Assembly: GCA_001767955.1 (NCBI GenBank)
Contig: MEMO01000016.1
Location: forward strand, 39,404-103,403
Source of the DNA: Alphaproteobacteria bacterium RIFCSPLOWO2_01_FULL_40_26
GTDB lineage: Bacteria; Pseudomonadota; Alphaproteobacteria; Rickettsiales; UBA1997
Length of the DNA stretch: 64,000 nt
Reading direction: 5' to 3'
Every line of letters starts with the position of its first letter. The first letter of the stretch is position 1. The translations under genes were made by a program, and so were the position numbers. The notes under the pieces are model-generated. The model was not told where the DNA came from. It made no database searches and worked only from the letters and a program-made list of their open reading frames with translations. Below, piece after piece: positions 1 through 64,000 of the stretch.

Positions 1-1
1 C

Positions 2-865
2 CGCATTGGCGCGATTTCCTTGCAGAGAATTAGCGGTCTTGCCACATTTTGTCTGGCGCCTTTCTTTGACTATCCAAAAGATTTTGATCCGCGTTTGGTT
101 TCTGATTTTGCTGCCATTCCGCTGGTTAGAAATATCAACATCTCCGCGCTTTTTGCGCTTGGAATTGCCGACACGGAATCTTTCATGCTTGTCAATGGCA
201 TCGATTTTGATGTTTCAAGGGGAAGCATAAAAGCGACAGCAAAACTTTATGAAGAATTTCTGCAAATTATTGAAAAACAGGGAGTTGAAGTGGCGATGAA
301 ATTTGCCGCAAAAGAAGGTTTTAGCGATGCTGAAGCTATGCGAGCAACGCACATGTCTTGGCAAATTGAGAGTTGCAGAAAAGTTTTGCGACATGCTGCA
401 ATGCCGATGATTCTTGGTTCATCCGCGGCAATTCGCGATGATCTCGGCGAGATTTTTGAAAAAGCGGAAAAAGATGAGCCGGTATCTTACGGCAGGCGCG
501 TGATCGATGCTTGTCGCATCATGGTGCGTGATGAAGCTGTTGATCTTGCCACAAAACAAACCTTGGCCTGTATGGCGCAACAGGTTTCCAATGTGCGTCA
601 TCGCGGAAATTTTTATGATACCAGAGCAAAACTGGTTCGTGATGCTAACAACGCTTTGCGCGAAGGTGATTCCAAAAAATTTGGCGAATCTTGTGAGTGG
701 CTTGCAATCATCGTAAGATCAGCTGGAAATCCAGCCAGCCCTGGTAGAAAAACACATGAGTTGTTAACTTATTTCCGAGACAGCTTTGATAAAACCTCCG
801 TGCCCATGGAGGATTTGATGGAAAAAACGGAGCTAGTAAGAAGTAGCGAGCCAGTTCGGCAATGA
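2..865 (+). CDS. hypothetical protein, 5' end runs off the window
   Basis: Frame of the 20..865 track ORF stays open back to base 2. I recognise no family motif. The 3' end overlaps the convergent lipoprotein ORF by about 33 nt. Confidence 0.5.
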   Translation, partial: RIGAISLQRISGLATFCLAPFFDYPKDFDPRLVSDFAAIPLVRNINISALFALGIADTESFMLVNGIDFDVSRGSIKATAKLYEEFLQIIEKQGVEVAMKFAAKEGFSDAEAMRATHMSWQIESCRKVLRHAAMPMILGSSAAIRDDLGEIFEKAEKDEPVSYGRRVIDACRIMVRDEAVDLATKQTLACMAQQVSNVRHRGNFYDTRAKLVRDANNALREGDSKKFGESCEWLAIIVRSAGNPASPGRKTHELLTYFRDSFDKTSVPMEDLMEKTELVRSSEPVRQ

Positions 866-1375
866 GTTGTCTTTTACGGGCTTGACTGAAATCAGGGCGT
901 TATCATCGCTTGGTTTGTGGCCTTTGAGATATTTTTCGTGATAAATCGCAAGTAGTTGGTCCATCTTTTGTGTTTTGCCGGTAAGGTCGGGAGCGTCGGA
1001 GCTGATGATTTCCATCCCATGTTGATCGAAGTAAAGCTGGACGTAGTTGTAAGTGGTTGGATCATCAAAGCTTGGCAGATTATTTTCCTTAAAAAAGAAC
1101 TCCCTGCGCACAATTTCGCCATCATCATTTGTCCATGAAAGTTTAACCAATCCAAAAAATCTGGCTGCGGAAGAAAGATAAAATGATTGGCTACGGCTAT
1201 CGCCCGGATTAAGCGCTGGCAAGGTCAAAACATGTCCTGCCCATTCGCAAGTGATGTTTTTTATTGGCGCAAAACTGGCATTGCTGAAATAAATCACCGG
1301 ACTTTCGCGCTTGAAATTGCCGATTGCGCAGCCAAGGAGGAAAAAAAACGGCAATAGTAAAAAAGATTTTTTCAT
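833..1375 (-). CDS. putative lipoprotein, unknown function
   Basis: First ATG (1375) gives MKKSFLLLPFFFLLGC, a signal peptide plus lipobox. The track ORF start at 1420 is an upstream TTG. Confidence 0.55.
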   Translation of the reverse strand: MKKSFLLLPFFFLLGCAIGNFKRESPVIYFSNASFAPIKNITCEWAGHVLTLPALNPGDSRSQSFYLSSAARFFGLVKLSWTNDDGEIVRREFFFKENNLPSFDDPTTYNYVQLYFDQHGMEIISSDAPDLTGKTQKMDQLLAIYHEKYLKGHKPSDDNALISVKPVKDNSLPNWLATSY

Positions 1376-1416
1376 AAGTTTGGTCGTCTGCCGGAACTTT
1401 GCCCATGCCAAAGTGA

Positions 1417-2307
1417 TCAAATAGACTTCCCCTGCAAAAATAGTTCACGGGTTTTGATGGCTTTGGCAAAGCGCGAGAAAGCGAAGAGATAGCTGTAGAT
1501 CAGGCCGTTAAAGCCATAGATGAAATAGCGGCGCACGAAATAGGCTTTAAAAAAAGCAAAGATCGGGATGAAAAAAATTTTTAAAATTGACGGGTATTTG
1601 TCTTTCCTGAAAGCGTCATTTGCCTGCATTTGTGAATAGGAATTTATTTTCTCGATCCAGTGTGAGTAGGAGCGGAAGGATTGGTGGTGGATGATGTTTT
1701 TAAGTTGGAGGATCGTGCCTCGTGCCTCGTGCCTCGTGCTTCGTGGATTAAAATTACCGAAGCACGAAGCACGAAGCACGAAGCACGAAACATTCCAGAC
1801 ACAAAATTTTGTATAACAACCCTTTCCGGCATGGTTTGTTTCTTTCAGCATGACCGAATCATGCACCGAACTGTTTTTGAATCCGGCCAGATCGCAGTTG
1901 TAAAGGCGAAACTGATTGTAGTAATAAGCCCATTTTTTTGGCTTTTTTTCCTGTGGAAATTTATTGACGATTTTGATGCGAAATCCCGCTACATCATCGG
2001 CGATTTTTCCAGAAAAAATTTCTTTAATCTCCGCACATAATTCCTGCGAAATTTCTTCATCGGCATCAATGTTCAAAATCCATTTATTGCGACATTTCGA
2101 TTCACCAAAAATTTTCTGTTGGCCATAACCTTTCCATTCGTTGAACATCACTTTTGCACCGGCCTGAATGGCTGTTTCACAGGTTCTATCATTGCTTCCA
2201 GAATCAACCACCAGAATTTCATCAGCGATTTCTTTTGCCGCATTGATTACGGAAGCAATGCGATTGGCTTCATTTTTGGTTATGATAAAAATTGAAATCG
2301 GAATCAT
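1417..2307 (-). CDS. family 2 glycosyltransferase carrying an in-frame palindromic-repeat insertion
   Basis: GT2 N-terminal pattern: IFIITKNEANRI, VVDSGSNDRT, NIDADE. The segment GCYTKFCVWNVSCFVLRASCFGNFNPRSTRHEARG is encoded by repeat A1. Confidence 0.85.
   Translation of the reverse strand: MIPISIFIITKNEANRIASVINAAKEIADEILVVDSGSNDRTCETAIQAGAKVMFNEWKGYGQQKIFGESKCRNKWILNIDADEEISQELCAEIKEIFSGKIADDVAGFRIKIVNKFPQEKKPKKWAYYYNQFRLYNCDLAGFKNSSVHDSVMLKETNHAGKGCYTKFCVWNVSCFVLRASCFGNFNPRSTRHEARGTILQLKNIIHHQSFRSYSHWIEKINSYSQMQANDAFRKDKYPSILKIFFIPIFAFFKAYFVRRYFIYGFNGLIYSYLFAFSRFAKAIKTRELFLQGKSI
1690..1820. repeat. palindromic repeat family A, copy A1 (GTGCYTC heptad hairpin), inside the GT2 gene
   Basis: Arms tcgtgcctcgtgcctcgtgcctcgtgcttcgtgg / cgaagcacgaagcacgaagcacgaagcacga around loop attaaaattacc. 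The outer arm agacacaaaattttgtataacaac matches copy A2. Boundaries approximate. Confidence 0.85.
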
Positions 2308-2314
2308 AAATTGG

Positions 2315-2441
2315 GTTGTTCTTAAAATCTTGTGTCTTTACTCGTGCTTCGTGCTTCGTGCTTCGTGGTTTAAAATTACCGGAGCACGATGCACGATGCA
2401 CGAAGCACGAAATTTGCCAGACACAAAATTTGCATAACAAC
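2315..2441. repeat. palindromic repeat family A, copy A2 (intergenic)
   Basis: Full 127-bp palindrome gttgttcttaaaatcttgtgtct...cgtgcttcgtgcttcgtgcttcgtgg..gagcacgatgcacgatgcacgaagcacg...agacacaaaatttgcataacaac, between the divergent GT2 and dsbA-like genes. Confidence 0.9.
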
Positions 2442-2519
2442 TATAAATTGATTGATTTAATTGAGTGCGAAAAATATCTAAAGCCCGTCTCTCTTACGTC
2501 AATTCAAAATCCAAAAGTC

Positions 2520-6646: not shown

Positions 6647-7948
<1,302 letters not shown>

Positions 7949-8132: not shown

Positions 8133-9473
8133 CTACCAACGTATCTCGAATTTTTTGCGTAGGAAAATTGCTGCAGAATTTAGAATAATTAAAAATCCAA
8201 GTAGAACCAAAATTGCTGCTGCGGTTTTTTCGGCGAAACCTGATTCGGGTGAATCTGACCAAAGATAGATTTGCACCGGTAAGACTGATGTGGGATCGGT
8301 AAAATTTTGTGGGATATCGGCGATGAAAGCGACCATGCCAATCATCAAAAGTGGAGCAGTTTCGCCCAAAGCGCGCGAAATCGCCAAAATTGTTCCGGTC
8401 ATAATTCCCGGTACTGCAAGCGGTAAAAGATGATGCAAAGTGATCTGCATTTTTGAAGCGCCAAGAGCTGCAGCTCCATCACGAATTGAGTTTGGAATCG
8501 AACGAATAGTATTGCGTGTAGCGATAATAATAACCGGCAAAACCAGCATGAACAAAGTCATCCCGCCGACTAAAGATGAGGAACGCGGCAAATTCATAAA
8601 TTGCAGATAAACTGTTAATCCAAGCAGGCCGTAGATGATTGATGGAATTGCCGCGAGGTTATTGATGCTGATTTCAATTATGTCGGTAAAACGATTTTTT
8701 GGCGCGAATTCTTCAAGATAAAAGGCGCACATTATGCCAATTGGAAAAGCAAAAATCAGAAAAATTACCATCACCAAAAATGATCCGATCAAGCCAGCGC
8801 CAATGCCGGCAATTTCCGGTTCACGCGAATCGGCAAAAGTAAAAAATTTCCAGTTAAAAACTTTTCTTACCTGATTTTTTGTTTTCAGATCAGAAAGCCA
8901 GCGAATCTGATTGTCATTTAGTGAAGAGATATTTTGGTGTTTAAAAAACATATCGGCTTTTGATGCGGCACTTATCCAGAAAATTTTTAAATCGGGATTT
9001 TTCTTGATTTGTTCTTTTATCTCAAGGTTTGCGGCCTTGCTTACCAATTGATAAAGTGAGTTAATTTCAGCAAGTTTTGTGGCTTCGGGAAATCTTTGTC
9101 TCATTGCGTCTTTTATGGCTTGGCGATAATCATCTTCTTTCACGCTGATTTCCAAGGCGATTTCACTTCGGTAAAAATTGCTTTTGGCAAAAATCATAGC
9201 AAACAAAATCAGTAAAAATGCTAAAGCAAAGCCAACCGAAATCATGCCAAACAGCATAAATCGTGATTCGGCGGCATGACGCTTTTTTAGATTTCCAATT
9301 GTTCTAGAGCCTATCTTCAAATTCATTTGTCTTTGATTTTTTGTAAATTTTTGCTCATTTTTTTGAAGAATTTTTTGCAGTATGTCTAATACAGCTGCAA
9401 AATTCTTCAAAAAAGTCGCTAAAAATTTACAAAAAATCAAAGACAAATGAATTTGAAGACAGGCTCTAGCCAT
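8133..9473 (-). CDS. pstA: phosphate ABC transporter permease PstA (start uncertain: 9473 or 9326)
   Basis: C-terminal permease core (ISRALGETAPLLMIG) follows pstC. The first 49 codons are read through palindromic element G1. ATG 9473 overlaps the pstC stop by 8 nt. An alternative ATG at 9326 lies inside the element. Confidence 0.85.
   Translation of the reverse strand: MARACLQIHLSLIFCKFLATFLKNFAAVLDILQKILQKNEQKFTKNQRQMNLKIGSRTIGNLKKRHAAESRFMLFGMISVGFALAFLLILFAMIFAKSNFYRSEIALEISVKEDDYRQAIKDAMRQRFPEATKLAEINSLYQLVSKAANLEIKEQIKKNPDLKIFWISAASKADMFFKHQNISSLNDNQIRWLSDLKTKNQVRKVFNWKFFTFADSREPEIAGIGAGLIGSFLVMVIFLIFAFPIGIMCAFYLEEFAPKNRFTDIIEISINNLAAIPSIIYGLLGLTVYLQFMNLPRSSSLVGGMTLFMLVLPVIIIATRNTIRSIPNSIRDGAAALGASKMQITLHHLLPLAVPGIMTGTILAISRALGETAPLLMIGMVAFIADIPQNFTDPTSVLPVQIYLWSDSPESGFAEKTAAAILVLLGFLIILNSAAIFLRKKFEIRW
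9304..9469. mobile_element. MITE-like palindrome family G, copy G1
   Basis: Near-perfect 166-bp palindrome ctagagcctatcttcaaattcatttgtctttgattttttgtaaattttt...aaaaatttacaaaaaatcaaagacaaatgaatttgaagacaggctctag, flanked by TA. Confidence 0.85.
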
Positions 9474-14958: not shown

Positions 14959-15855
14959 ATGTCAGTTCTAATCAATAAAAACACCAAAGTTATTTGCCAG
15001 GGAATCACTGGTTCACAAGGCACTTTTCACACTGAACAAGCGCTTGCTTATGGTACTAAAATGGTTGGCGGTGTCACGCCTGGCAAGGGTGGAAGTCAAC
15101 ATCTTCATCTTCCGGTTTTTGACAGTGTTTTTGAAGCCAAACAAAAAACCGCTTGCAATGCTTCAGTGATTTACGTGCCGCCAGCTTTTGCTGCCGACGC
15201 CATTCTCGAAGCAATTGATGCCGAGATTGAACTGATTGTCTGCATCACTGAAGGCATCCCAGTGCTTGACATGGTAAAAGTGAAAAAATCTTTGTGCGGC
15301 TCAAAATCGCGTTTGATCGGCCCCAACTGCCCAGGCATAATCACTCCGGGTGAATGCAAAATCGGCATCATGCCCGGCCATATTCACAAGCGCGGCAAAA
15401 TCGGCATCGTTTCACGTTCCGGCACTTTAACTTACGAAGCAGTTCATCAAACAACCAATACTGGCTTGGGACAAAGCACCTGCATCGGCATTGGTGGTGA
15501 TCCGGTCAATGGCACCAGTTTTATTGATTGCCTTGATATGTTTTTGTCCGATCCGGAAACCGAAGCCATGATCATGATTGGCGAAATCGGCGGAACTGAC
15601 GAGGAAGAGGCTGCCGAATTCATAAAAGCCGAAGCTAAAAAGGGCCATAAAAAACCAATCGTCGGTTTCATCGCCGGCAGAACAGCTCCTCCGGGACGCA
15701 GAATGGGACATGCCGGTGCCATAATTTCCGGCGGCAAAGGCGGTGCGGAAGGAAAAATTGACGCAATGAAATCAGCCGGAATCACCGTCGCCGACAGCCC
15801 GGCAGCGCTTGGTGAAACCATGCTTAAATTACTAAAAAACCCCAATAACGCTTAA
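14959..15855 (+). CDS. sucD: succinyl-CoA ligase alpha subunit; last 4-5 codons and the stop come from repeat C1
   Basis: SRSGTLTYE and [12 protein letters not shown] motifs. The tail ...[11 protein letters not shown] is encoded by the element terminus ccccaataacgcttaa. Confidence 0.95.
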
Positions 15856-16073
15856 GGAATTATGGCTTAAGTCTACAAACTCTAAGTAAAACCAATAAAC
15901 TCCACCACACTGTCACCCCGCACTTGTTGCGGGGTCCATTTGGTCGCAACCAATAAAATCAAGTCTTTGACGAGATGGACCCCGCAACAAGTGCGGGGTG
16001 ACAGTGTGGTGAGATTTGTGATTTAGCTTAGAGTCTGTAAATTTGAATCTGGGTTTCTTAAACGTTATTGGGG
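15840..16073. repeat. composite palindrome C1 (family C shell with a family B core)
   Basis: Terminal inverted repeats ccccaataacgcttaag / cttaaacgttattgggg (15840-15856 / 16057-16073). The inner arms are also inverted. Confidence 0.85.
15902..16011. repeat. palindromic repeat family B, copy B1 (core of C1)
   Basis: ccaccacactgtcaccccgcacttgttgcggggtcca ... tggaccccgcaacaagtgcggggtgacagtgtggtg. Each arm is itself a hairpin (ccccgca cttgt tgcgggg). Confidence 0.9.
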
Positions 16074-16110
16074 TTAAAAAACTAATTTTAACACTAACCA
16101 CAGGAGACAT

Positions 16111-17260: not shown

Positions 17261-17293
17261 ACTCTCTCAATGGTTTAGACAGGTTCTTAAATT

Positions 17294-17318
17294 GTCATCC
17301 CGAACTTGTTTCGGGATC
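17294..17318. repeat. family B-like single hairpin arm (diverged, B3)
   Basis: gtcatcccgaacttgtttcgggatc compared with the family B arm gtcaccccgcacttgttgcggggtc. Confidence 0.6.
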
Positions 17319-17325
17319 TATTGTG

Positions 17326-17423
17326 GCCATGTCGCAAATCAACTTCCTGAAAAATCTGAACCCTTGATTTACAAGGGCTCGTCGAGTTTAAAAATGGTAA
17401 GAAATGGGGATTTGCGACAGTCC
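17326..17423. repeat. palindromic repeat family E, copy E1 (intergenic)
   Basis: ccatgtcgcaaatc...cccttgatttacaaggg...gatttgcgacagtc. About 94 percent identical by eye to the reverse complement of copy E2 at 41387-41484. Confidence 0.9.
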
Positions 17424-17623
17424 CATTGTGAAAGACACAATATTTTTGATAACAACTAAAAAAATAGCAAACTCGGAAAGAAGTTTGAAACCTGAATTTT
17501 GTGCAAAAGTTCTCATGAAGAATTATTCGAAAAACATTTTGTTGATTTTTATTTAGGCGTAGAGTTATAGATTATTTGGTTGTTTAGTTTAACATTTTTT
17601 TAAATTTTATTTATAACATTTCT

Positions 17624-19122: not shown

Positions 19123-20534
19123 CTGCCGTATAGGTCGCTAAACCTGACAATATCATCTTCTCCCAAATATTCCCCTGTTTGAACTTCAATTAGCTCTAAC
19201 GGAATTTTGCCCCTGTTTTCCAGACGATGTTTCTTGCCAACGGGGACGTATGTTGATTCGTCTTCGGTTAAAACAAATTCTTTACTGCCGCAGACAACAT
19301 GCGCCGTACCTTTGACCACCACCCAATGCTCGGCGCGATGGTTATGCATTTGCAGCGATAGCGAAGCCTTCGGCTTGACGGCAATTCTTTTCACCTTGAA
19401 ACGGTCAGAAACATCAATCACTTCGAAGCTTCCCCATGGCCGCAAAACTCTGGTATGGGAATTGCATTCCTGCCTTTTATGCTGCTTCAAAAGCTCAAAC
19501 ATTTTTTTGACATCCTGCGAATTGTTTTTGTTGACCACCAGCAACACATCCTTGAGGGAAATTATGATCAGATTCGCAACTCCGATTGCTGCAACTAAAC
19601 CATGCCGTGAATTGATATAGCAATTTTTGCTTTCAAGAACAAAGGCATCGCCAATCAGGCTATTTTTATTTTTATCTTTTTTAGCCAATTCGGAAACAGT
19701 TTGCCAAGATCCAACATCAGACCAGCCAACATCAAGTGGCATTACCGCAACCTTGTCAGATCTTTCCATAACAGCGTAATCAATGGAAATATCGGGACAT
19801 TTTTCGAAGCTTTCTTCATCAAGGCGAACAAAATCAAGATCATAAATTGCTTTGTTATAGGCGTTGACAGAATGAACAAAAATCTCACCACAATATTTCT
19901 GCAAAGCCTCAAGATATATTGAAGCGCGAAACAGGAAAATACCGCTGTTCCACAGATATTCTTTGCTTTCGATAAATTTTTCTGCCTTTTTTTTGTCCGG
20001 TTTTTCGACAAATTTTTCTGCCGCAAAAAGTTCAGGAAATTCGCTTAAATCACGACCCTTTTTTATATAACCATATCCGGTTTCAACCCGACTTGGCTTA
20101 CTGCCAAAGGTAATTAGAAATTCTTCCGTCGCCGCTTTTGCCGCTTTTTTAACCTGGGAAATAAATTTTTTGTCATCATTGACGACATGATCGGAAGGCA
20201 TAACCAGAATCAGATCATCTTTTGGATCTGCGGTAATTACGTCCAAAGCGGCAATCGCAATTGCCGGCGCAGTGTTTCGTCCGGTTGGCTCAAGGATAAT
20301 TGATTTGGCGTTCATTTTAATCGCCCGCAATTCTTCCGCCGCCAAAAAACGATGTTCATTGTTGCAAATAACTATCGGATCAACAAAGCCACAATTTTTC
20401 ACACGTAATGCGGTTTGCTGAAAAAGCGAATATTCGCCAAAAAAATCAATAAATTGCTTGGGATTTAAACTACGGGAAACCGGCCATAGCCTTGTTCCCG
20501 AACCTCCAGAGAGAATTACCGGTGTGATTTTCAT
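19119..20534 (-). CDS. manC: mannose-1-phosphate guanylyltransferase / mannose-6-phosphate isomerase (bifunctional type)
   Basis: First ATG gives MKITPVILSGGSGTRLWP. C-terminal cupin region VKRIAVKPKASLSLQMHNHRAEHWVVVKGTA. Confidence 0.9.
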   Translation of the reverse strand: MKITPVILSGGSGTRLWPVSRSLNPKQFIDFFGEYSLFQQTALRVKNCGFVDPIVICNNEHRFLAAEELRAIKMNAKSIILEPTGRNTAPAIAIAALDVITADPKDDLILVMPSDHVVNDDKKFISQVKKAAKAATEEFLITFGSKPSRVETGYGYIKKGRDLSEFPELFAAEKFVEKPDKKKAEKFIESKEYLWNSGIFLFRASIYLEALQKYCGEIFVHSVNAYNKAIYDLDFVRLDEESFEKCPDISIDYAVMERSDKVAVMPLDVGWSDVGSWQTVSELAKKDKNKNSLIGDAFVLESKNCYINSRHGLVAAIGVANLIIISLKDVLLVVNKNNSQDVKKMFELLKQHKRQECNSHTRVLRPWGSFEVIDVSDRFKVKRIAVKPKASLSLQMHNHRAEHWVVVKGTAHVVCGSKEFVLTEDESTYVPVGKKHRLENRGKIPLELIEVQTGEYLGEDDIVRFSDLYGR

Positions 20535-43659: not shown

Positions 43660-43686
43660 TTTTCTCCTGTAGTTATGCGCCCTCTT

Positions 43687-44741: not shown

Positions 44742-44819
44742 TTTTTAATGAATTTTCGCACAACATAAATTCCGATGCAGTAGTTTCAAGATTGCTTTCA
44801 AAGATTTTATTTTTATACT

Positions 44820-44995
44820 CAATCCAGCTGAAGAAGCCGATTTATGACGAAGCATTTTTGAGGAAAAATTGCGACCCCGTCGACGCGCAGCGCGACAAAA
44901 CAGAATGCGGGCTGTATCAAGTGATACAGCCAAATTCTCCGAGCAAATTTTTACCAAAAAGGCGAAGTCAGAAATCGGCTTCTTCAGCTGGATTG
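44820..44995. repeat. palindromic repeat family H, copy H1 (grpE-clpP spacer)
   Basis: Terminal inverted repeat caatccagctgaagaagccgattt / aaatcggcttcttcagctggattg. Internal hairpin gctgtatcaagtgatacagc. Confidence 0.88.
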
Positions 44996-45031
44996 GGTAT
45001 AGAAATTCGCAAAATTAAATTTCACAAATTC

Positions 45032-45658
45032 ATGTCAGAAAAAATTCTCGATCAGGCTAATTACCTGATTCCGATGGTAATCGAACAAACCGCAAGAGGT
45101 GAGCGCTCTTTCGACATTTACTCTCGCTTACTGAAAGAACGCATCATTTTTTTATCAGGACCGGTGAATGATCAGGTTTCCTCTTTGATCGTAGCACAAC
45201 TTCTTTTTCTCGAATCGGAAGATCCAAAAAAAGACATTTATTTTTACATCAATTCGCCCGGCGGTATTGTGACTTCCGGCCTCGCCATGTATGATACCAT
45301 GCAATATATCCGTCCCGATGTCGCAACGCTTTGTATCGGACAGGCGGCTTCGATGGGCTCTCTGCTTCTTGCCGCCGGAACTTCAGGAAAAAGATTTTGT
45401 TTGCCCAATTCGCGCATCATGATTCATCAGCCAAGTGGTGGTTTTCAAGGACAGGCCAGCGATATCGAGATCCACGCGCAAGAAACCATAAATCTGAAAA
45501 AAAGACTCAACGAGATTTATGCCAAGCACACCGGACAAAAATTATCCGCAATCGAAAAAGCCATGGATCGCGATAATTTCATGTCGCCAGAGAAAGCTAA
45601 AGAATTCGGGCTTGTAGATGAAGTAATAACCAGAAGACCAGACAAGAATGACAAATAA
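45032..45658 (+). CDS. clpP: ATP-dependent Clp protease proteolytic subunit
   Basis: First ATG gives [34 protein letters not shown]. Active-site GQAASMGS. The track ORF 44573.. is read-through of H1. Confidence 0.95.
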
Positions 45659-47109: not shown

Positions 47110-47152
47110 GAGCCTGTGTCTGGAATATTTCGTGCATCGTGCTTCGGTAATA
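47110..47152. repeat. family A-like half element (A3) abutting G2
   Basis: gagcctgtgtctggaatatttcgtgcatcgtgcttcggtaat. It resembles the left arm of A2 (cttgtgtct...tcgtgcttcgtgc). No matching right arm. Confidence 0.55.
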
Positions 47153-47176
47153 TTGCGTCTCTAAGTATAGCGCCGA

Positions 47177-48913: not shown

Positions 48914-48929
48914 CGTAAGCTAAACTTAT

Positions 48930-49000
48930 CGAAGCACGATGCACACTGAACCAAGTTCAGTGCAAGCTGCGCGATGCACGAACATTTTGTATTAATAACC
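48930..49000. repeat. degenerate family A-like copy (A4)
   Basis: cgaagcacgatgcac[actgaaccaagttcagt]gcaagctgcgcgatgcacgaacattttgtattaataac resembles the right arm of A2. Confidence 0.5.
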
Positions 49001-49862: not shown

Positions 49863-49870
49863 GATTAATT

Positions 49871-50107
49871 CCTCGATAACGCTTAAGAAAATTTGTAATC
49901 ACTTTACTCTCCATGGGTCATTTACCACTCACAAAATATTACCCCTCACAAAATATTACCCCTCACCCCAACCCTCTCCCACAAGGGGAGAGGGAGTAGC
50001 GCCGAATTCGGACTAACTCCCTCTCCCCTTGTGGGAGAGGGTTGGGGTGAGGGGTAATGTTCTTCAAAGAGTAAGGTTGAGAGCATTTTTCCTAAGCGTT
50101 ATTGGGG
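49871..50107. repeat. composite palindrome C2 (family C shell with family D core 49956-50057)
   Basis: Termini cctcgataacgcttaag / cctaagcgttattgggg. Core ttacccctcaccccaaccctctcccacaaggggagagggag...ctccctctccccttgtgggagagggttggggtgaggggtaa. Short tandem ttacccctcacaaaata units on the left arm. Confidence 0.9.
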
Positions 50108-50217
50108 TTAAATTAATAATTAATAACAGGCTTAGGCTCAACTTCTCATTTTAATTTTTGATCTTTGACTTTTGATTTTATTCATTAGTTTCCGCGCACG
50201 TTTAAACAACTGATTCT

Positions 50218-56260: not shown

Positions 56261-56425
56261 TAAGAACCTGTCCTAAATCTTTTTTAACCCCATATTTTGC
56301 CCTGTTTTGGCTTATTTTTTGCCAAAATTTTTCAAAATATGTCCATATATTTATCAAAATTTTGACAAAAAAACGCTCAAAACATGACAAAATCTGTGAT
56401 TAAAAAAGATCTAGGACAGGTTCTA
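56261..56425. mobile_element. MITE-like palindrome family G, copy G3
   Basis: taagaacctgtcctaaatctttttt...aaaaaagatctaggacaggttcta, 165 bp, TA-flanked. It contains the annotated ATG of the AsmA-like gene. Confidence 0.8.
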
Positions 56426-59400
56426 AAACAAAAATTGCTATCTACCATCAAATCGGAAGCTGTCAAAATCGGCGCTGTGGTTTTTATCTCCATAATTCTG
56501 CTGGTTATGATTCTGCCGCTTTTTTTTGATAATTCGGCGTTGAAATTTCAGATTGCGCAAAAAATCAGCCATATTTCAAACGCAAATTTTTCAATTAAAG
56601 GAGGGCTAAAAATAGCATTGCTACCATATCCAAAAATCACTGCCTATGATGTGTTTTTGCAAAATTATCAGACAAAATCTGTAGATGAAAATGGGCAAAA
56701 AATTTATAATTTTTATGCCAAATCCGTTACCGTGAAATTTCCGATTTTTCATGATTCACAAGATAATCCGATAGATAAAATAATTTTCTCCGATGTAGTT
56801 CTCACAAGACATTATACCACAAATAATGATCTTGCCCGCCAAAATAAATTTACGGAAAACCTGACACAATTCACCAAAAATTCCACCAACAATTCCAATG
56901 AAAAAAAAGTAGGATCAGGAATCAGTGAAAAATTATTTCCAATTGAAGACATAAAATCCTCTCACTTTTCAGCCACATCATTACCGCAAATAACCATCAA
57001 AAATGGTGAAGCAATTTTATATGATAAATTTGAACGCAAGAAGGAAATCAAATCCATCAATGCTGAAATAGAATGGAGCAAGGAAAGAATTATCACTGCA
57101 GGAAATTTTCAAAGCGAAGAGGTAAAAAGCGATTTTAAAATATTGGCAAAATTTAATTCGAAATCAGGAAAACATGACTCAATTTTAGAGTTGGCTTCTC
57201 CGCTTATACAACTGCACGCAAGCGGAAATTTTACTTCAGAAAATCGCGGGATCACGGCTAGTGATTTTAAGGGCAAAATTGAAGCGGAAATTTTTGAACT
57301 GAAATCCGCCTATCAAAGCTATTTCAAAAATAATGACTTGCTGGCGCAAAAATTAAAATACAACGCCAAGCCAATAAAAATCAGCGCTGATATTGCAAAT
57401 AGCGGCAAAGAAATTTCCATCGCAAATTTGAATGTGATTTCCGATGTGGCAAAGGGAAATGGCAATATCAATCTCGATTTCAATCTCGATTTCAATCTCG
57501 ACTTCACTGGCACAAATAAAGTGACAACAATTGACGCCATGCTGTCTTTTGAGAATCTTGATCTCGATAATTTATGGTCAACAGACACAGTCCAAACAAC
57601 AGATGCCGTTAACACAAAAGAAGCTCAAACTGAAGAAACTCAAATTACAAACGGGGAGGATAAAACACAGGATTCACAAGATTTAAGCCTCAGCACAAAA
57701 ATCAAAAATTTTGATCTGGCCGCTGAAATCAAAATCGCCAATGTCAAATATCGCCAGGGTGAAATCAAAGATGCCGACATTTATCTAACCATTTCAAAAA
57801 ATGGTGAAATCATGATATTGCCAATGATTTTCAGGATTCCGGGAGATGGAATTTTACGCATCAATGGCGTTGTCGACAACTCTTTGGCCTTTCCAAAATT
57901 CATCGGCAAAATTGATGCTTCCGGCAAAAGCATGAAAGATATTTTTAAGTGGCTGAATATCGAATCACAAAATCTGAAATATGACAATCTCGGACAATAC
58001 AACCTTTACTCCGATGTCATGCTTTTGCCAAACAACCTGTCTCTCAACAATCTCTATCTCAATATCAACAATGGCACAAGCGAGCTGCTCGGTGAAATCA
58101 AGGCACAAAGTCAAAGTAAAACAACAACCATAATTAGCCGCTTTGAAGTCGGAAATTTCAACATTGACGATTATTTCCTCACCTCGGGACAAAATGTTTA
58201 TTTGTCCTATGGATCTCTGCTAAAAAAGATGTTCTGGCTTAACAATATCTCATCAAACAATGAGCTTAATTTAAAGTTCGATCGTTTGGTTTACAAAGGA
58301 GAGGAATTTCCGGAGCAATCGCTGAAATTGAAGTTCGGACGCGGTTATTTGCAGATTTCTGATCTTAATCTCAAATCACAAAACACCGACTTGAACGCCA
58401 ATATGACCATTGATATTAGCGACAAAAACCCACGCTTTGAAATTGACGCCAAAGGTGAAAATTTCCTTTATGAAACTACACAAAAAAGTGAATTGATTAA
58501 AGATGAAAAACAGAAACCCAAAAATTTTCTTGATCAGTTTTACACTTTACCATCGCTTGAGGGATTCAATGGCAAAGTTTCATTCGATTTTGGCAATGTC
58601 ATCATGGATAATCTTACACTCAAAAACGTTAAATTTGCCGGAAAACTAAAAGATGGAAATATCGAAAAATCAGAATTCGCTTGTGATGCATATGATGGAA
58701 AATTCAGCTACAAGGGCACAATCGGCATCAAAAACAATAAGACCATTAACGGCAATTTTTCATTCAGCGATGCTCAGTTGCAGCCACTTTTATCCGACAT
58801 GTTTGGTATCAAAAACATTTCCGGAATCGCCAATATCTCAGCAAACATCACTTCAATTGCCGATAAGAAATCCGATTTCGCCAAACAATTAAGCAGTGAA
58901 GTAAAATTCAGCACCAATGCACCAATAGTTGAAGGATATGGTTTAAGCGATCTGGTAAAAAAAATGCTCGCCAAACAAATCTATCAAAATGAGCTGCGCG
59001 ATCCGGAAAAAATTTTGTTCAACAAGGAAAGCAAAACCATCTTCAAACAGGCCAGTGGAACGATTCAGATTAACAATGGACAAAATGGAAGAATGCGCAT
59101 CAATGTTAATGCACCGGCAATCAACGCCATTTTATCCGGTACGATTAATGCTGAAAACATAACGATTGATACTTTGTTTAATGCCATCTTCATTACCGGA
59201 AATCATCAAAAACAAACTCCAATCAACATCGCAACCAATCTCAAAGGGCCAACCAACAACATACAACAAAACACCAACTTTGATCAGGTGAAGCAATATC
59301 TCGGTTTAATAAAAGGCACAAACATTATACCCACACCATTAGAACCTCCAACACAGCCAAATCAGCAGCAGCTGATATATGATCAAACACAATTGAGATT

Positions 59401-59494
59401 GCCGCCGGAAGTAACGCAAATACAAAATCAGGCCGAATCCATGAAATCCATGCTACCTGCACAAACAGAGCAAACAGAACAACCAGTACAATGA
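56384..59494 (+). CDS. AsmA-family outer-membrane biogenesis / lipid-transport-like protein (start uncertain)
   Basis: N-terminal TM (IGAVVFISIILLVMILPLFF) followed by a long beta-rich, Asn-rich region of about 1000 aa, as in AsmA-like proteins. An alternative TTG start at 56435 lies just outside element G3. Confidence 0.7.
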   Translation: MTKSVIKKDLGQVLKQKLLSTIKSEAVKIGAVVFISIILLVMILPLFFDNSALKFQIAQKISHISNANFSIKGGLKIALLPYPKITAYDVFLQNYQTKSVDENGQKIYNFYAKSVTVKFPIFHDSQDNPIDKIIFSDVVLTRHYTTNNDLARQNKFTENLTQFTKNSTNNSNEKKVGSGISEKLFPIEDIKSSHFSATSLPQITIKNGEAILYDKFERKKEIKSINAEIEWSKERIITAGNFQSEEVKSDFKILAKFNSKSGKHDSILELASPLIQLHASGNFTSENRGITASDFKGKIEAEIFELKSAYQSYFKNNDLLAQKLKYNAKPIKISADIANSGKEISIANLNVISDVAKGNGNINLDFNLDFNLDFTGTNKVTTIDAMLSFENLDLDNLWSTDTVQTTDAVNTKEAQTEETQITNGEDKTQDSQDLSLSTKIKNFDLAAEIKIANVKYRQGEIKDADIYLTISKNGEIMILPMIFRIPGDGILRINGVVDNSLAFPKFIGKIDASGKSMKDIFKWLNIESQNLKYDNLGQYNLYSDVMLLPNNLSLNNLYLNINNGTSELLGEIKAQSQSKTTTIISRFEVGNFNIDDYFLTSGQNVYLSYGSLLKKMFWLNNISSNNELNLKFDRLVYKGEEFPEQSLKLKFGRGYLQISDLNLKSQNTDLNANMTIDISDKNPRFEIDAKGENFLYETTQKSELIKDEKQKPKNFLDQFYTLPSLEGFNGKVSFDFGNVIMDNLTLKNVKFAGKLKDGNIEKSEFACDAYDGKFSYKGTIGIKNNKTINGNFSFSDAQLQPLLSDMFGIKNISGIANISANITSIADKKSDFAKQLSSEVKFSTNAPIVEGYGLSDLVKKMLAKQIYQNELRDPEKILFNKESKTIFKQASGTIQINNGQNGRMRINVNAPAINAILSGTINAENITIDTLFNAIFITGNHQKQTPINIATNLKGPTNNIQQNTNFDQVKQYLGLIKGTNIIPTPLEPPTQPNQQQLIYDQTQLRLPPEVTQIQNQAESMKSMLPAQTEQTEQPVQ

Positions 59495-60336: not shown

Positions 60337-62175
60337 ATGACAGATTTTCGCAACATCGCCATAATCGCTCATGTTGACCATGGCAAAACCACTTTGATTG
60401 ATGCCATGTTGCATCAAAGCGGAACTTTTCGTGCCAATCAGCAAGTTGAAACACGCGTGATGGATTCCAACGCGCTCGAAAAAGAACGCGGCATTACCAT
60501 TCTTGCCAAATGCACTTCACTGATGTGGGGGGGCAACAAAATCAATGTTATTGACACTCCCGGACATGCCGATTTTGGCGGTGAAGTTGAGCGTGTTTTG
60601 TGTATGGCTGATAGCTGTCTGCTTTTGGTTGATTCTGCAGAAGGTGTAATGCCACAAACCAAATTTGTGCTCTCAAAGGCTTTGGCCATCGGACTTCGTC
60701 CTATTGTAATCATCAACAAAATTGATCGCCAAGATGCGCGCCCTGATGAAGTTTTAAACGAAATTTTTGATCTTTTCGTTTCACTAAATGCCAATGATGC
60801 ACAGCTTGATTTTCCAGTTTTATATGCCGTTGGCCGCGATGGCTGGTGCGTTCGCGATATTGAAAAAGATCAGCGCAAAGATCTCTCGCCACTTTTTGAT
60901 CTGATCCTCGAGCATATCACGCCACCAAAATTTGATACTGACGCACCATTCAAAATGCTGGCCACTCTTCTCGATCACAGCCCATATTTTGGCCGCATGC
61001 TAACCGGCCGTATCTATTCCGGACGCGCTAAAAATCTGATGAGTTTCAAGGCAATTAACTTGAAAGGTGAAGTGGTAGAACAAGGCCGCCTCACTAAACT
61101 CCACGTCTTTCGCGGTGTTGAAAAAGTTGCGGTGGAAGAAGCAAAAGCCGGCGACATTGTCTCAATTGCCGGTTTGGAAAAAGCATCAGTTTCCGACACA
61201 CTTTGCGATTTGTCAGTTTTCGAACCAATTAAATCAACGCCAATTGATCCACCGACAATGGCCATCACAATTGGCGTCAATGATTCTCCTCTCGCCGGAA
61301 CGGAAGGTAGTAAAGTGACCTCGCGCATGATTCGCGATCGCCTTTTTGCCGAGGCTGAAACCAACGTCGCCATTAAAGTTAAAGAATCAGGGGCCAAAGA
61401 TGCTTTTGAAGTGGGCGGACGCGGTGAATTACAACTTGGCGTGCTAATTGAAAATATGCGTCGTGAAGGCTTCGAGCTTTCAGTTTCAAGGCCTCGTGTG
61501 CTTTTCAAAAAAGGTGAAAATGATGAAATTTCAGAACCGGTGGAAGAAGTTGTGGTTGATGTTGATGATAATTTCAGCGGCGTTGTTGTTGAAAAACTTT
61601 CATCGCGCAAAGGCGAAATGATTGATATGCGCCCATCTACCGGCGGCAAAACTAGAATTATTTTTTATGTGCCTTCGCGCGGGTTAATTGGATATCAAAG
61701 CGAATTTTTAACCGATACTAAAGGCACCGGCGTTCTAAACAGAATTTTCCACGCCTATATTCCATATAAAGGCGAAATGTCGGAACAAAAAAGCGGCGCA
61801 TTAATTGCAACCGATCCAGGCGAAGCTGTGGCCTACGCTTTATGGAATCTGCAGGAACGCGGAGCGTTATTTATCAAACCGCAACAAAAAGTTTATTCCG
61901 GAATGGTTGTCGGAGAAAATTCCAAACAGGGTGATTTGGAAGTGAATGTTTTGAAAGGCAAACAACTCACCAACATTCGCGCTTCCGGCACTGACGAAGC
62001 TATTCGCCTTACTCCGCCACGCGAATTAACACTCGAAGACATGATCACTTATGTTGGCGATGATGAGTTGGTAGAAGTAACACCAAAATCCCTGCGTCTG
62101 CGCAAAAAAGTTTTGGATTCAAATGAGCGCAAAAGATTGAGCAGAAGTAAGGAAGCGAAGTTTGATTTTGTTTAG
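60337..62175 (+). CDS. typA: translational GTPase TypA/BipA
   Basis: ATG 60337 gives MTDFRNIAIIAHVDHGKTTL. DTPGHADF and NKIDR motifs. Confidence 0.95.
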   Translation: MTDFRNIAIIAHVDHGKTTLIDAMLHQSGTFRANQQVETRVMDSNALEKERGITILAKCTSLMWGGNKINVIDTPGHADFGGEVERVLCMADSCLLLVDSAEGVMPQTKFVLSKALAIGLRPIVIINKIDRQDARPDEVLNEIFDLFVSLNANDAQLDFPVLYAVGRDGWCVRDIEKDQRKDLSPLFDLILEHITPPKFDTDAPFKMLATLLDHSPYFGRMLTGRIYSGRAKNLMSFKAINLKGEVVEQGRLTKLHVFRGVEKVAVEEAKAGDIVSIAGLEKASVSDTLCDLSVFEPIKSTPIDPPTMAITIGVNDSPLAGTEGSKVTSRMIRDRLFAEAETNVAIKVKESGAKDAFEVGGRGELQLGVLIENMRREGFELSVSRPRVLFKKGENDEISEPVEEVVVDVDDNFSGVVVEKLSSRKGEMIDMRPSTGGKTRIIFYVPSRGLIGYQSEFLTDTKGTGVLNRIFHAYIPYKGEMSEQKSGALIATDPGEAVAYALWNLQERGALFIKPQQKVYSGMVVGENSKQGDLEVNVLKGKQLTNIRASGTDEAIRLTPPRELTLEDMITYVGDDELVEVTPKSLRLRKKVLDSNERKRLSRSKEAKFDFV

Positions 62176-62204
62176 AGCCTGTTTTCAAACTCAACATAGC
62201 TCTA
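62173..62204. repeat. 32-nt mini-palindrome with family G termini at the typA stop
   Basis: tagagcctgttttcaaactcaacatagctcta. The first TAG is the typA stop codon. Confidence 0.6.
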
Positions 62205-62208
62205 GTTT

Positions 62209-62466
62209 CTAAGAATAAACTTCACGACGATGAGCAACTCTAACCACAGTGACTACCAATTGAACCCCTTCTCTTGCACATAAAAGGCGATAGTCTCCAA
62301 CACGAAATTTGTAAAATCCTGTCAAATCTCCGGCTAATGGTACGAGATATTTTTCAGGAGCAGTCTGGAGCTTTTCTACTATTGCCCTGTCTATCCTTTT
62401 TCTGATTTCCGGTGTTAGTTTAGAAAAATCTTTTTCAGCTTTTTTAGTGAAATGGATTTGCCACAT
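62209..62466 (-). CDS. relE: RelE/ParE-family type II toxin
   Basis: 85 aa, FTKKAEKDFSKL...FYKFRVGDYRLLC...VVRVAHRREVY, a typical RelE/StbE pattern. Confidence 0.85.
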   Translation of the reverse strand: MWQIHFTKKAEKDFSKLTPEIRKRIDRAIVEKLQTAPEKYLVPLAGDLTGFYKFRVGDYRLLCAREGVQLVVTVVRVAHRREVYS

Positions 62467-62715
62467 TTAGAGCTTGTATTTTTTTCTGATTTTATCGTAT
62501 GGAACGGATTTCTGTTTGGATTTTTTGAATTCATCATAGGCTTTTTTTGCCTCGTGATAATCCTCAATATCTTCAAGCTTTTCAGCCAAAAGTTTTTCCA
62601 AGGCTTTTTTGATAAAATAACTTTTAGATCTCTCCTCCATGTTGCAAATCATGGTTAATCCTTGATCTAAATGATTTGGAATTTGTGCAGAAATTGTAAT
62701 AACGCGTTCTTGCAT
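62467..62715 (-). CDS. ribbon-helix-helix (CopG/RelB-like) antitoxin
   Basis: 82 aa, RVITISAQIPNHLDQGL...RSKSYFIKKALEKLL is RHH-like. Abuts the toxin start with no gap. Confidence 0.75.
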   Translation of the reverse strand: MQERVITISAQIPNHLDQGLTMICNMEERSKSYFIKKALEKLLAEKLEDIEDYHEAKKAYDEFKKSKQKSVPYDKIRKKYKL

Positions 62716-62793
62716 AAAAGATTTATAAAAAATTTTCTTTCATAAATAGTTATTAAAACATCAGAAAAATAACTAGTAAATAAACTTTTTATT

Positions 62794-63846
62794 GTGACTA
62801 AAAATCTGACTTATCTAACCAAACAACAGATTATAGAAGGACTTATAAGATTAGGCGAGAAGCCATTTCGTGCCAAACAGATTTGGAATTGGATTTATGC
62901 GCGCGGCGTAAAATCTTTTGACGAAATGACGAATATCTCAAAAGAAACGCGTGAAGTTTTATCGCAAAATTTCTCATTTGAACATCCACAAATTTCCAAA
63001 GATTTAACCTCATCTGATGGCACCAGAAAATGGTTAATAAAATTTTCTGACTGTCGTGAAGTTGAAACAGTTTTTATTCCAGAAGAAACCCGCGGCACGC
63101 TCTGCATCTCATCGCAAGTCGGTTGCACCCTATCCTGCAAATTCTGCCATACCGGTACTCAAACCTGGGTTAGAAATCTCGAATTTCATGAAATTGTAGC
63201 GCAAATTTTACTTACAAAAGATTTGCTTTGCGATTGGAACAAAAAAGAACGCAAACTGACCAACATAGTATTCATGGGCATGGGCGAGCCATTTTTTAAT
63301 TATGAAAATGTCGCCAAAGCGGTGAGAATTTTAAATGATTCTGATGGTTTGGATTTGTCAGCACGAAAAATCACTATCTCAACTTCTGGTCTTGTTCCTG
63401 AAATTTTACGCGCTGCAGATGAGCTGAAAACAAATCTGGCAATCTCACTTCATGCCACAAATGACAAGCTTCGAACCGAAATTATGGCTATCAACAAAAA
63501 ATATCCTCTCGCTGAACTTTTATCTGCTTGCAAAATTTACAATCGTAAAAATCCAAACCAAAAAATCACTTTTGAATATGTGATGCTAAATGGTGTGAAT
63601 GATTCAGAAATTCATGCGCAAGAATTGGTTAATTTGGTCAGAAAATTTAACTTGAATGTCAAAATCAACTTGATTCCGTTTAACCCATGGAATGACTGCG
63701 CATATGATTGTTCCAAATCAGAACAGATTTTAAATTTTCAAAAGAAATTAAAAAACGCCGGTTTAATTTCTCCAATTCGTAAAACTCGCGGTGATGATGT
63801 TTTGGCGGCTTGCGGCCAACTAAAATCTTCATCACAAAGATCATAA
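62794..63846 (+). CDS. rlmN: 23S rRNA/tRNA (adenine-C2)-methyltransferase RlmN
   Basis: FRAKQIWNWIY, radical-SAM CTLSCKFCHTG, FMGMGEP, C-terminal ACGQL. GTG start. Confidence 0.93.
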   Translation: MTKNLTYLTKQQIIEGLIRLGEKPFRAKQIWNWIYARGVKSFDEMTNISKETREVLSQNFSFEHPQISKDLTSSDGTRKWLIKFSDCREVETVFIPEETRGTLCISSQVGCTLSCKFCHTGTQTWVRNLEFHEIVAQILLTKDLLCDWNKKERKLTNIVFMGMGEPFFNYENVAKAVRILNDSDGLDLSARKITISTSGLVPEILRAADELKTNLAISLHATNDKLRTEIMAINKKYPLAELLSACKIYNRKNPNQKITFEYVMLNGVNDSEIHAQELVNLVRKFNLNVKINLIPFNPWNDCAYDCSKSEQILNFQKKLKNAGLISPIRKTRGDDVLAACGQLKSSSQRS

Positions 63847-63862
63847 ACAGTTTCTAACATAA

Positions 63863-64000
63863 TCCCAATAACGCTTAAGAAAATTTGTAATCACTTTACT
63901 CTTTCTAGGTCATTTACCCCTCACAAAATATTACCCCTCACAAAAAAATATTACCCCTCACCCCAACCCTCTCCCACAAGGGGAGAGGGAGTTATACCAA
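63863..64000. repeat. composite palindrome C3 (family C terminus plus family D core), truncated by the window end
   Basis: tcccaataacgcttaagaaaatttgtaatcactttactc...ttacccctcaccccaaccctctcccacaaggggagagggag is nearly identical to the left half of C2. Confidence 0.88.

Follow-up and report, generated by a model that had tools for sequence, protein, structure and literature searches.

Small palindromic elements of several kinds, some in frame within housekeeping enzyme genes, in a deep environmental relative of Rickettsia

We report that a 64,000-nt stretch of the genome of Alphaproteobacteria bacterium RIFCSPLOWO2_01_FULL_40_26 (contig MEMO01000016.1 of GCA_001767955.1, positions 39,404 to 103,403; the whole stretch is hereafter called the window) carries small, mostly palindromic repeats, some of which lie in frame within genes for conserved enzymes. 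The host is a deep environmental relative of Rickettsia, an uncultivated aquifer bacterium with a genome of about 1.45 Mb, 40% GC and about 94% coding. [quoted passage not shown] We put at about three in four the probability that the genome harbours small, non-autonomous palindromic elements of several unrelated kinds that have colonised it, and that the copies surviving in genes were filtered by selection. Element coordinates are given without strand unless one is stated, and matching loci in other sequences are cited by L numbers.

In-frame insertions in conserved enzyme genes

Five enzyme genes of the window are interrupted by an element, and all five are open from end to end. In purK (36477..37670, minus strand), the copy B2 of family B (37017..37160) contributes 144 nt, or 48 codons, in frame within the ATP-grasp domain, splitting the Pfam domain. 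When PurK was aligned with the structure 4dlk by phmmer, residues 6-164 matched 10-169 and residues 216-395 matched 175-356, leaving about 46 extra residues that correspond to B2. The AlphaFold2 model of PurK had a confident core (pTM 0.76), with insert residues 173-216 at pLDDT < 50 and flanked in the conserved fold by a helix on one side and a strand on the other. In hisH (42171..42938, minus strand), element H (42447..42608) adds about 47 codons in frame, residues 110 to 165 of the protein spanning only 110 to 118 of 4gud. In the gene for an NDUFAF7-like methyltransferase (41098..42183, minus strand), the copy E2 (41377..41485) provides 34-35 codons in frame; residues 234 to 269 fall at the single position 249 of PDB 1zkd, a clean insertion of about 34 residues equal to E2. 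In-frame insertion in these three genes was thus verified against solved structures.

Two further in-frame insertions are probable. In thiE (20470..21162, minus strand), a composite fragment made of an E-type end and a G-type arm (20676..20750) adds about 20 residues in a loop; the Pfam match and a weak PDB alignment both end at the fragment, and translation resumes into the conserved GGI motif. In a glycosyltransferase family 2 (GT2) gene (1417..2307, minus strand), the 108-nt copy A1 (1713..1820) lies in frame at about codons 160-198; the Pfam match ends at aa 139 and the PDB alignment stops short of the insert, while the open reading frame (ORF) stays open and the C-terminal part continues. 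The initial annotation had counted four in-frame copies in intact enzyme genes; their in-frame status stood, and the count rose to five, three of them verified and two probable.

The elements could instead be ordinary extragenic REP or terminator-like hairpins, with the in-gene copies marking decaying pseudogenes of a reductive genome. Rickettsiales genomes are known for gene decay, and most of the element nucleotides (about 64%) are indeed intergenic. We nevertheless regard this as very unlikely, since the five genes are fully open, PurK, HisH and the methyltransferase align to structures on both sides of their inserts, the inserts consist of whole codons and vary within the population by 21 and 72 nt, and the purK insert is in frame across species about 76% identical.

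The elements are open in several frames, and mechanically called ORFs as well as a number of public gene calls therefore run through them and over-extend genes. PurK was called at 397 to 423 aa (36477-37748), the clpP ORF at 361 aa as compared to its true 208 aa (44573-45658), and a DsbA-like ORF from a TTG inside the copy A2 (2316-3278). Start and stop calls are distorted in this way for pstA, a pyridoxal phosphate (PLP)-dependent enzyme, the clpP ORF and purK, and the elements also break the contigs of metagenome-assembled genomes (MAGs).

Repeat inventory and assembly

Self-BLASTN, repeat finding and Tandem Repeats Finder (TRF) gave 19 copies or fragments in 7-8 families, labelled A to H, with a total length of 2,379-2,397 nt. 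The window has 40.7% GC, is about 94% coding and holds about 4 kb of intergenic DNA, of which the elements occupy about 38%. About 64% of the element bases are intergenic and 36% lie in coding sequence, and the in-gene density is about one copy per 11-13 kb of the window. Three terminal or core motifs occurred 4-6 times each as compared to 0-0.4 expected from dinucleotide shuffles, and the full-length copies form long hairpins whose folding z-scores relative to shuffles run from -9 to -22; chance is excluded on both counts.

The initial annotation had given about 20 copies, eight families and about 2.4 kb, of which the copy number and total length agree with ours and the number of families becomes seven to eight. 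It had described all elements as GC-rich palindromes, most of them with arms that are themselves hairpins, and this did not hold. Only B2 (60% GC) and H (52%) are clearly GC-rich, whereas C1 (27%), D (29%) and C2 (39%) fall below the 40.7% of the window; H is an insert of direct repeats, and the arms are clearly hairpins only in B1, F1 and F2. The internal tandem arrays were confirmed, with units of 7 nt in A (3.7-4.7 copies), 21 nt in the purK copy (4.1 copies) and 17 nt and 20 nt in the F copies (2.6 copies) by TRF. Its placing of copies in spacers and at gene termini was equally sound: pstC and typA stop within elements, the tail of sucD is in one, and the PLP-dependent enzyme (PALP) gene and a 1036-aa ORF start in them. 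The eight families, treated there as one phenomenon, separate: C and D have the ends of IS5-type elements, and the others differ in their ends.

The window is 99.9-100% identical across tens of kb to MEMG01000015.1 (GCA_001767865.1), and likewise to JGI and ENA contigs. The initial annotation had allowed that the repeats might occur in this window alone, for example through misassembly. The same sequences recur in at least four independent assemblies and are therefore no assembly artefact, and further copies lie on the contigs L176 and L231. Copies of B1, A, F and E with 84-99% identity were found on other contigs bearing housekeeping and VirB10 genes, so that the families are dispersed. An origin in assembly or binning, by chimeric joins or collapsed palindromes, is hardly credible: MAG contigs do start, end and switch partner at elements (the parent contig of L001 appears to end near 15985 and 64085) and a low-coverage MAG has N gaps at the hisH insert, but the elements, including the purK, hisH and methyltransferase copies, are identical in NCBI, JGI and ENA assemblies made with different assemblers, the in-gene copies preserve the frame, and related species carry homologous inserts.

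Contigs of other assemblies break or switch partner inside G or at the C2 boundary: L002 parts from the window at 44814, and L004 and L005 begin at 44861 and 47108, respectively. The switch of L002 inside G yields a fused tRNA-synthetase/ClpP gene call, which reflects either repeat-induced misassembly or a real rearrangement.

Families C and D have the ends of IS5-type elements

C1 (9305..9468; TA-GAGCC...GGCTC-TA; fold z = -21.6), C2 (46946..47109; 3' of clpX; z = -19.4) and D (56264..56423; z = -15.3) are each 160 nt long and form a single long hairpin with no ORF of their own and no transposase ORF. D is a sister of C. The ends of both families read TA-GAGCCTGT.TT.AAA (in D, GAACCTGTCCTA), and TA flanks C1, C2 and D on either side; both C half copies have it at their outer end. 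We scanned the 15-base C end over a 596-Gb genome collection with a loose pattern that returned mostly chance matches. Among the matches listed, the same ends were present on hairpin elements of 160-184 nt in MAGs labelled Rickettsiales or Alphaproteobacteria, with full-length homology of 73-76% to the C and D copies of the window, and were likewise carried by a Rickettsia endosymbiont, by Verrucomicrobiota and by others, the flank being TA in every case. Elements of 847 and 887 nt (L052, L071) with the same TA-flanked ends encode DUF4096 and DDE_Tnp_1, which is the two-ORF transposase typical of IS5-family elements. Since these full-length insertion sequences (ISs) with identical ends encode such a transposase, families C and D are, as judged from their ends, IS5-type MITEs. 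L052 and L071 belong to other phyla, and the cognate full-length IS was found only there among the matches listed. An IS630/mariner origin, also considered for this TA-flanked family, was set aside in view of the IS5-type DDE transposases of the same-ended full-length ISs.

The C and D copies lie at gene boundaries. C1 with its TA duplication amounts to 162 nt inserted at codon 3 of pstA (8133..9473, minus strand); it is open in the pstA frame, so that read-through adds 54 codons, and its junction forms the TAG stop of pstC. Depending on the gene caller, PstA is 446 aa or 397 aa long. One C half copy (39568..39614) lies in the gene for the PLP-dependent enzyme (38645..39619, minus strand), whose start codon it provides along with about 14 codons; the match to Pfam PALP begins at aa 29. 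In the other half copy (62173..62216), the TA-G junction forms the TAG stop codon of typA/bipA. A gene for a ParE-family toxin (62209-62470) directly adjoins this half MITE. D holds the start codon of the 1036-aa ORF (56384..59494).

The Rickettsia endosymbiont of Nabis limbatus (L016, L040, L120) has at least three identical 184-nt IS5-type MITEs with family-C ends, each embedded in an identical longer flank. The IS5-type MITEs in Rickettsiales-labelled genomes are 160, 178 or 184 nt long, which together with the TA duplication gives a multiple of three in this small sample (L048, L083, L016/L040/L120 and C1, C2 and D of the window). Relatives in other phyla, with lengths such as 132, 138, 161, 263 and 272 nt (L007, L085, L091 and Verrucomicrobiota loci), mostly do not give a multiple of three. 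The frame-neutral length may result from selection.

Family B resembles CGTC-tagged REP sequences

B1 (15838..16075; fold z = -14.8) is a composite with an outer 19-nt terminal repeat, AACCCCAATAACGCTTAAG, which encodes the last 6 codons and the stop of sucD. Its core is a tail-to-tail dimer of the REP hairpin TGTC-ACCCCGCA-CTTGT-TGCGGGGT-CCA. Copies of B1 that are 98-99% identical lie on contig L176, one of them with the 7-bp duplication TATTTTA. A solo hairpin, TGTC-ATCCCGAA-CTTGT-TTCGGGAT-CTA, lies just 3' of a tRNA-Arg gene (17293..17321, plus strand), and compensatory changes set its stem apart from that of B. In purK, B2 joins two B hairpins head to head and is extended by four copies of a 21-nt unit. 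All five REP units of the window have the head TGTC; the four B units end in the tail CCA, the solo unit in CTA. The B stem has 8 bp, with A-T only as the first pair, and the loop has 5 nt (CTTGT).

A metagenome scan with a degenerate 24-mer revealed B-type hairpins in at least 118 contigs of 31-68% GC (L127-L244). Among the matches listed, these contigs carry 63 further hairpins that were not forced by the pattern, with the flank GTCA in 52 and TC in 48; their stems differ (TGCTGAA, TCCTGAA and others). In 203 hairpins from the window and the metagenome loci listed, the head was TGTC in 118, CGTC in 43, AGTC in 16 and GGTC in 14, and the stem started with AT in 158 and AC in 34. The tails of the metagenome hairpins listed were mostly CTN or CCA. 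The metagenome hairpin is often paired, 10-40 nt away, with a partner of compensatory stem (CCCGAA, GCTGAA, CCTGAA), the loop and heads staying constant; the counterparts in the window are at 15911-16003, 17293-17321 and 37017-37160. In spurious ORFs, the hairpin is read as peptides, for example VIPNLFRD or MLKQVQHD.

CGTC-tagged REPs have been described with the head CGTC, often TGTC and also CCTC, a stem of 8-9 bp starting from A-T, a loop 4-5 nt long and the tail CCA; they form dimers, include intragenic units and occur mainly in Alphaproteobacteria at tens to thousands per genome, and none of the genomes studied has a transposase that goes with them (Di Nocera, De Gregorio and Rocco 2013, BMC Genomics 14:522; PMC3733652). 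The superfamily explicitly takes in RPE-4 and RPE-6 of R. conorii, which are Rickettsia palindromic elements (RPEs), as well as dRS3 of Neisseria (PMC3733652). Feature by feature, family B agreed with this description in head, stem and loop, tail, dimers and intragenic units, and its copy number is five units in 64 kb plus the copies on L176 and L231. The comparison with PMC3733652 thus places family B, by fit of its sequence features, among TGTC/CGTC-tagged REP hairpins and dimers. A text search of the literature by sequence gave no matches to the hairpin sequences or their peptide readings. The 49-aa peptide of the purK insert scored nothing against proteins, probably owing to repeat or bias filtering.

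A palindrome at L120, in the Rickettsia endosymbiont, that matches the RPE4 domain model (see below) contains the unit TGTC-ATCCCGTGA-TTTAT-TCACGGGAT-CCA, which is identical to the solo unit at 17293 in head and outer stem.

Other families

Families A, E, F and G are MITE-like palindromes by their sequence, and no known transposase goes with them. The arms of A1 (fold z = -9.0) are built of 7-nt tandem units (TCGTGCC / CGAAGCA). A2 (2313..2441; z = -8.8), a full copy with the terminal inverted repeat GTTGTTMTKMAAAWYTTGTGTCT and 89% identity to A1, occupies the spacer from which the GT2 and DsbA-like genes diverge. A3 (47110..47169) is a half copy, with one terminal repeat and one arm, and is the target of C2 in this strain. 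A degenerate A-like hairpin with a weak fold (48921..48990; z = -1.9) lies in the coaD-ubiA spacer. E1 (17324..17432), which has TGTCGCAAATC terminal repeats, is intergenic downstream of tRNA-Arg and is 97% identical to E2 in the methyltransferase gene; a further E copy, on L231, is 92% identical. G (44809..45006; z = -17.2) is a 198-nt palindrome in the divergent grpE-clpP spacer. A, E and G each have terminal repeats of their own, and no parent element or transposase was identified for them.

The 19-nt terminal repeat AACCCCAATAACGCTTAAG is common to B1 and F. F1 (49869..50115; z = -16.0), with 17-nt tandem units, lies in the divergent spacer between ubiA and a biotin-carboxylase gene, and its core is a perfect palindrome on the hairpin CCTCTCCC-CTTGT-GGGAGAGG, which has the CTTGT loop but not the CGTC-type head. 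F2 (63861..64000), downstream of rlmN, has 20-nt units, is 93.6% identical to F1 and continues past the end of the window. The target duplications of B1 and F are AT-rich, being TATTTTA on L176 and TAAAAA in the window. H in hisH is built of a 31-nt repeat, the copies of which are 72 nt apart, and two copies of a 21-nt unit.

Several observations would suit the view that the elements, or some of them, are kept for use and are not just tolerated selfish DNA, serving in spacers as RNA or DNA hairpins with a regulatory role or in proteins as surface loops with a function: A2, F1 and G lie in divergent promoter spacers and B1, C2 and F2 directly 3' of genes, the B stem shows compensatory changes, the CTTGT loop and the heads do not vary over hundreds of copies gathered from many environments, and the inserts of purK and hisH are kept across species. 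Yet no Rfam family was matched at gathering and E-value thresholds, the only hits being tRNAs and sub-threshold generic-hairpin miRNA models. The inserts vary freely in sequence and length and are absent in close relatives, and the purK insert is predicted by AlphaFold2 to be unstructured. The conservation of loop and heads is equally expected of the recognition site of a mobilising enzyme. We therefore consider retention for use unlikely.

Some repeats stand apart from these families. A 27-nt tandem repeat (2.5 copies; 29020-29086) at the GC-rich 3' end of pnp is unlike the other families, and the gene exceeds its usual length by about 70-80 codons. In the truB-rpsO spacer (31643-31705), a 12-nt tandem repeat that looks perfect, TTCTAAAGACTT, is present five times. 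Two GC-rich hairpins (43662-43731 and 44145-44192) are single-copy in the window; one, CCCCCTATCCC...GGGGGATAGGGGG, lies between rplT and rpmI, and the other is a 13-nt duplication beside tRNA-Met. The direct repeats D1, D2 and D5 were dropped as candidate mobile elements, as they are paralogous prepilin-type genes. These three genes of about 285 aa (4055-4909, 4935-5795 and 17624-18493) share a prepilin-type N-terminal signal and conserved ends, and have a homologue at 37-43% identity in a 'Rickettsiales bacterium' MAG (L054).

Variation among strains and relatives

At the C2 site, four assemblies that are otherwise 99.9-100% identical (empty site seen in L001-L004 and L125) lack exactly 162 nt (160 + 2) and keep a single TA. 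The target being a half copy of family A, the C2 insertion is nested. The empty site carries TAGAGCCTGT, which repeats the first 8 bases of C2 itself.

The inserts within genes are also polymorphic. Within the species, purK has either 3 or 4 NKCGVTS units (21 nt each), in frame, and a HisH variant lacks exactly 24 aa, or 72 nt, which equals the spacing of the H repeat. The closest PurK relatives (76-78% identity) share the insert and its site but with another internal structure, while other relatives at 75-80% identity are without it, and unrelated inserts occur at other places of the protein in two more PurK homologues. In HisH relatives at 75-82% identity, the insert is absent or other inserts stand at the same site; one hisH site holds three different inserts across relatives. 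In a related species (L245; AtpA 90% identical, same gene order), a GTAG-tagged REP dimer occupies the purK site of B2. The elements of L245 comprise this dimer (2139-2190), a palindrome after purK (2725-2806) and a palindrome whose arms are 7-nt arrays of AGTCGTA (7011-7086), the last of family A design and different sequence.

Proposed mechanism

We propose that C and D are miniature derivatives of an IS5-family element, which would be moved in trans by a DDE transposase recognising the GAGCCTGT.TT.AAA ends and duplicating TA. The B units would spread by means of an enzyme that recognises head and loop, the mobilising enzyme of this superfamily being still unknown. B1 and F may be such hairpins, or CTTGT-loop look-alikes, within a MITE shell that has the shared 19-nt terminal repeat and makes AT-rich duplications of 6-7 bp, and A, E and G would be further MITE-like palindromes. 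Since non-coding DNA is scarce, many insertions must strike genes. Purifying selection would then clear all but the frame-keeping, stop-free insertions in tolerant loops or at gene ends, and we propose that the surviving in-gene copies are in frame because selection removes the others. Tandem units within genes (21 nt, 72 nt) would grow and shrink by slippage in whole codons.

Replication template switching, gene conversion or recombination between palindromes might instead have dispersed B and the other hairpins with no transposase involved, and they would then be repeats and not transposons. CGTC-tagged REPs have no associated transposase in the genomes studied (PMC3733652), changes of 21- and 72-nt units are typical of slippage, and the C2 polymorphism is bounded by 10-nt direct repeats. 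On the other hand, C, D, B1 and F have terminal inverted repeats and duplications (TA; TATTTTA or TAAAAA), the ends of C and D are those of bona fide IS5-family elements, and the hairpin type occurs in contigs of 31-68% GC among the matches listed, which needs horizontal spread. Transposase-free spread is thus rather unlikely.

Several points weigh against colonisation by mobile elements filtered by selection. The 64 kb and the handful of additional contigs showed no transposase gene, whether IS5-type or tyrosine/HUH, and mobilisation in trans within this genome is therefore putative. For family B, mobility is something we infer, because CGTC-type REPs are without a known transposase (PMC3733652). 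As the empty C2 site repeats the first 8 bases of the element, the polymorphism may represent a deletion between the 10-nt direct repeats. The purK insert is kept across species about 24% apart in protein and could have acquired a function. Translation of the inserts and their neutrality are presumed, and the thiE and GT2 insertions are less firmly supported than the other three.

Host and comparison with known elements

The initial annotation had taken the gene content as unlike that of Rickettsia and judged that the repeats look like an independent and richer case. The housekeeping genes of the window include eno, pstCA, sucCD, recA, ccmB, pnp, atpHAG, purK, bioB, hisH, grpE, clpPX, argF, panB and typA. 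The genome containing MEMG01000015.1 is Alphaproteobacteria bacterium RIFCSPHIGHO2_02_FULL_40_34 (1.43 Mb, 40.1% GC), which forms one species cluster with four other MAGs of about 40% GC (supplement of Anantharaman et al. 2016). One of its members has been assigned, within the order Rickettsiales, to Candidatus Gamibacteraceae, the sister group of Deianiraea (Schön et al., 2021 preprint; 2022 Nature Microbiology), and the host therefore falls inside Rickettsiales. This argues against independence, which is weakened further by the fit of family B to the CGTC/TGTC-tagged REP superfamily that holds RPE-4 and RPE-6; the wording 'richer' has 64 kb alone as its basis. Palindromic elements, RPEs and transposases are not mentioned in the text of Schön et al., and such elements in Gamibacteraceae or other deep Rickettsiales were not found in the searched literature. 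MITEs, CGTC-tagged REPs and in-frame palindromic insertions have each been described already.

Rickettsia itself is said to harbour the elements RPE-1 to RPE-10, reportedly from work by Ogata and colleagues in 2000 and 2002. In behaviour, RPEs are palindromes of about 100-150 nt that lie in frame in conserved genes and leave them intact, and this was found here also. As in RPEs, several palindromic families of 100-250 nt in a small Rickettsiales genome lie in frame in loops of unrelated housekeeping enzymes, the genes are not destroyed and other copies lie in spacers (review PMC10969869). Unlike RPEs, these elements are hosted by Ca. Gamibacteraceae and not by Rickettsia, some families have clear transposon ends and target duplications, and coding copies have variable tandem units. 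The initial annotation had put forward a comparison with RPE consensus sequences. Compared with domain models, no tested family fell among the named RPEs: the NCBIfam RPE domain models gave no match at E up to 10 with the insert peptides or with six-frame translations of A1, B1, the solo hairpin with E1, F1 and G (a six-frame set without C1, C2, D, A2 and F2), whereas the positive control L120:4362-4568 matched TIGR03777 RPE4 with 24.7 bits, above the cutoff of 23.95. When 24 kb of Rickettsia DNA was compared with the window by BLASTN, no match was obtained. With both the domain models and BLASTN negative, the link to RPEs is at the level of the REP superfamily, through family B, and not of the named RPE families.

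Family B shares with CGTC-tagged REPs the TGTC head, 8-bp stem, 5-nt loop, CCA tail, dimers, intragenic units and an alphaproteobacterial host. It differs from the CGTC-REP units of Rickettsia in the CTTGT loop and the inner stem, and from CGTC-tagged REPs in that B1 has its units in a larger MITE-like shell and the purK copy is extended by a 21-nt array. Families C and D resemble IS5-family MITEs such as mISOt1 of Orientia tsutsugamushi (Nakayama et al. 2008, PMC2575882), the ISOt1/mISOt1 pair being a precedent: they are about 160 nt long and ORF-less, have a TA duplication and terminal repeats identical to those of DUF4096/DDE_Tnp_1 ISs, and are found in Rickettsiales. They differ in that the cognate IS was found only in other phyla (L052, L071; among the matches listed) and in the in-frame read-through of one copy where pstA begins.

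Short hairpins in inverted doublets that act as a unit are found too in REPINs and GTAG-REPs, which are mobilised by RAYTs, the REP-associated tyrosine transposases, in Pseudomonas and Enterobacteria; the GTAG-tagged doublet of L245, which again has a CTTGT loop, stands at the very purK site. The REP units of the window have no GTAG head, having TGTC instead, and no RAYT/Y1 transposase domain was found in the window proteins scanned. QMITE1 and QMITE2 of Coxiella burnetii and the Correia elements of Neisseria are likewise small palindromes bounded by terminal inverted repeats at gene ends, with occasional in-frame fusion to ORFs (PMC5896051; review PMC10969869). Their sequences are unrelated to those of the window, and internal in-frame insertion into conserved enzyme domains looks, in our judgement, much commoner here than in QMITE or Correia elements.

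Significance

RPEs are the textbook case of selfish DNA inside protein-coding genes, and we know of no account of how they move or why Rickettsia tolerates them. The present elements show RPE-like behaviour beyond the genus Rickettsia, in a distantly related environmental family of its order. The type of transposase can be identified for at least one of the element classes, and another shares a REP superfamily with RPE-4 and RPE-6. From the frame-neutral lengths of Rickettsiales MITEs and from the same purK and hisH loops being struck repeatedly by different element classes in sister species, we tentatively suggest, as a doubtful but possible reading, that in-gene palindromic colonisation is no quirk of the genus Rickettsia but an ancient trait of the whole order, still at work in environmental lineages that live freely or as ectosymbionts, with the elements themselves perhaps shaped for life in genes. 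A further question for the aquifer system is what share of 'hypothetical' or over-long gene calls in MAGs is due to such repeats. As the copies are polymorphic in a well-sampled aquifer population, mobilisation of CGTC-REPs and RPEs could be caught in action there, and the variants among near-identical aquifer genomes offer a natural system for finding what mobilises the elements and how proteins absorb insertions of 20-50 residues.

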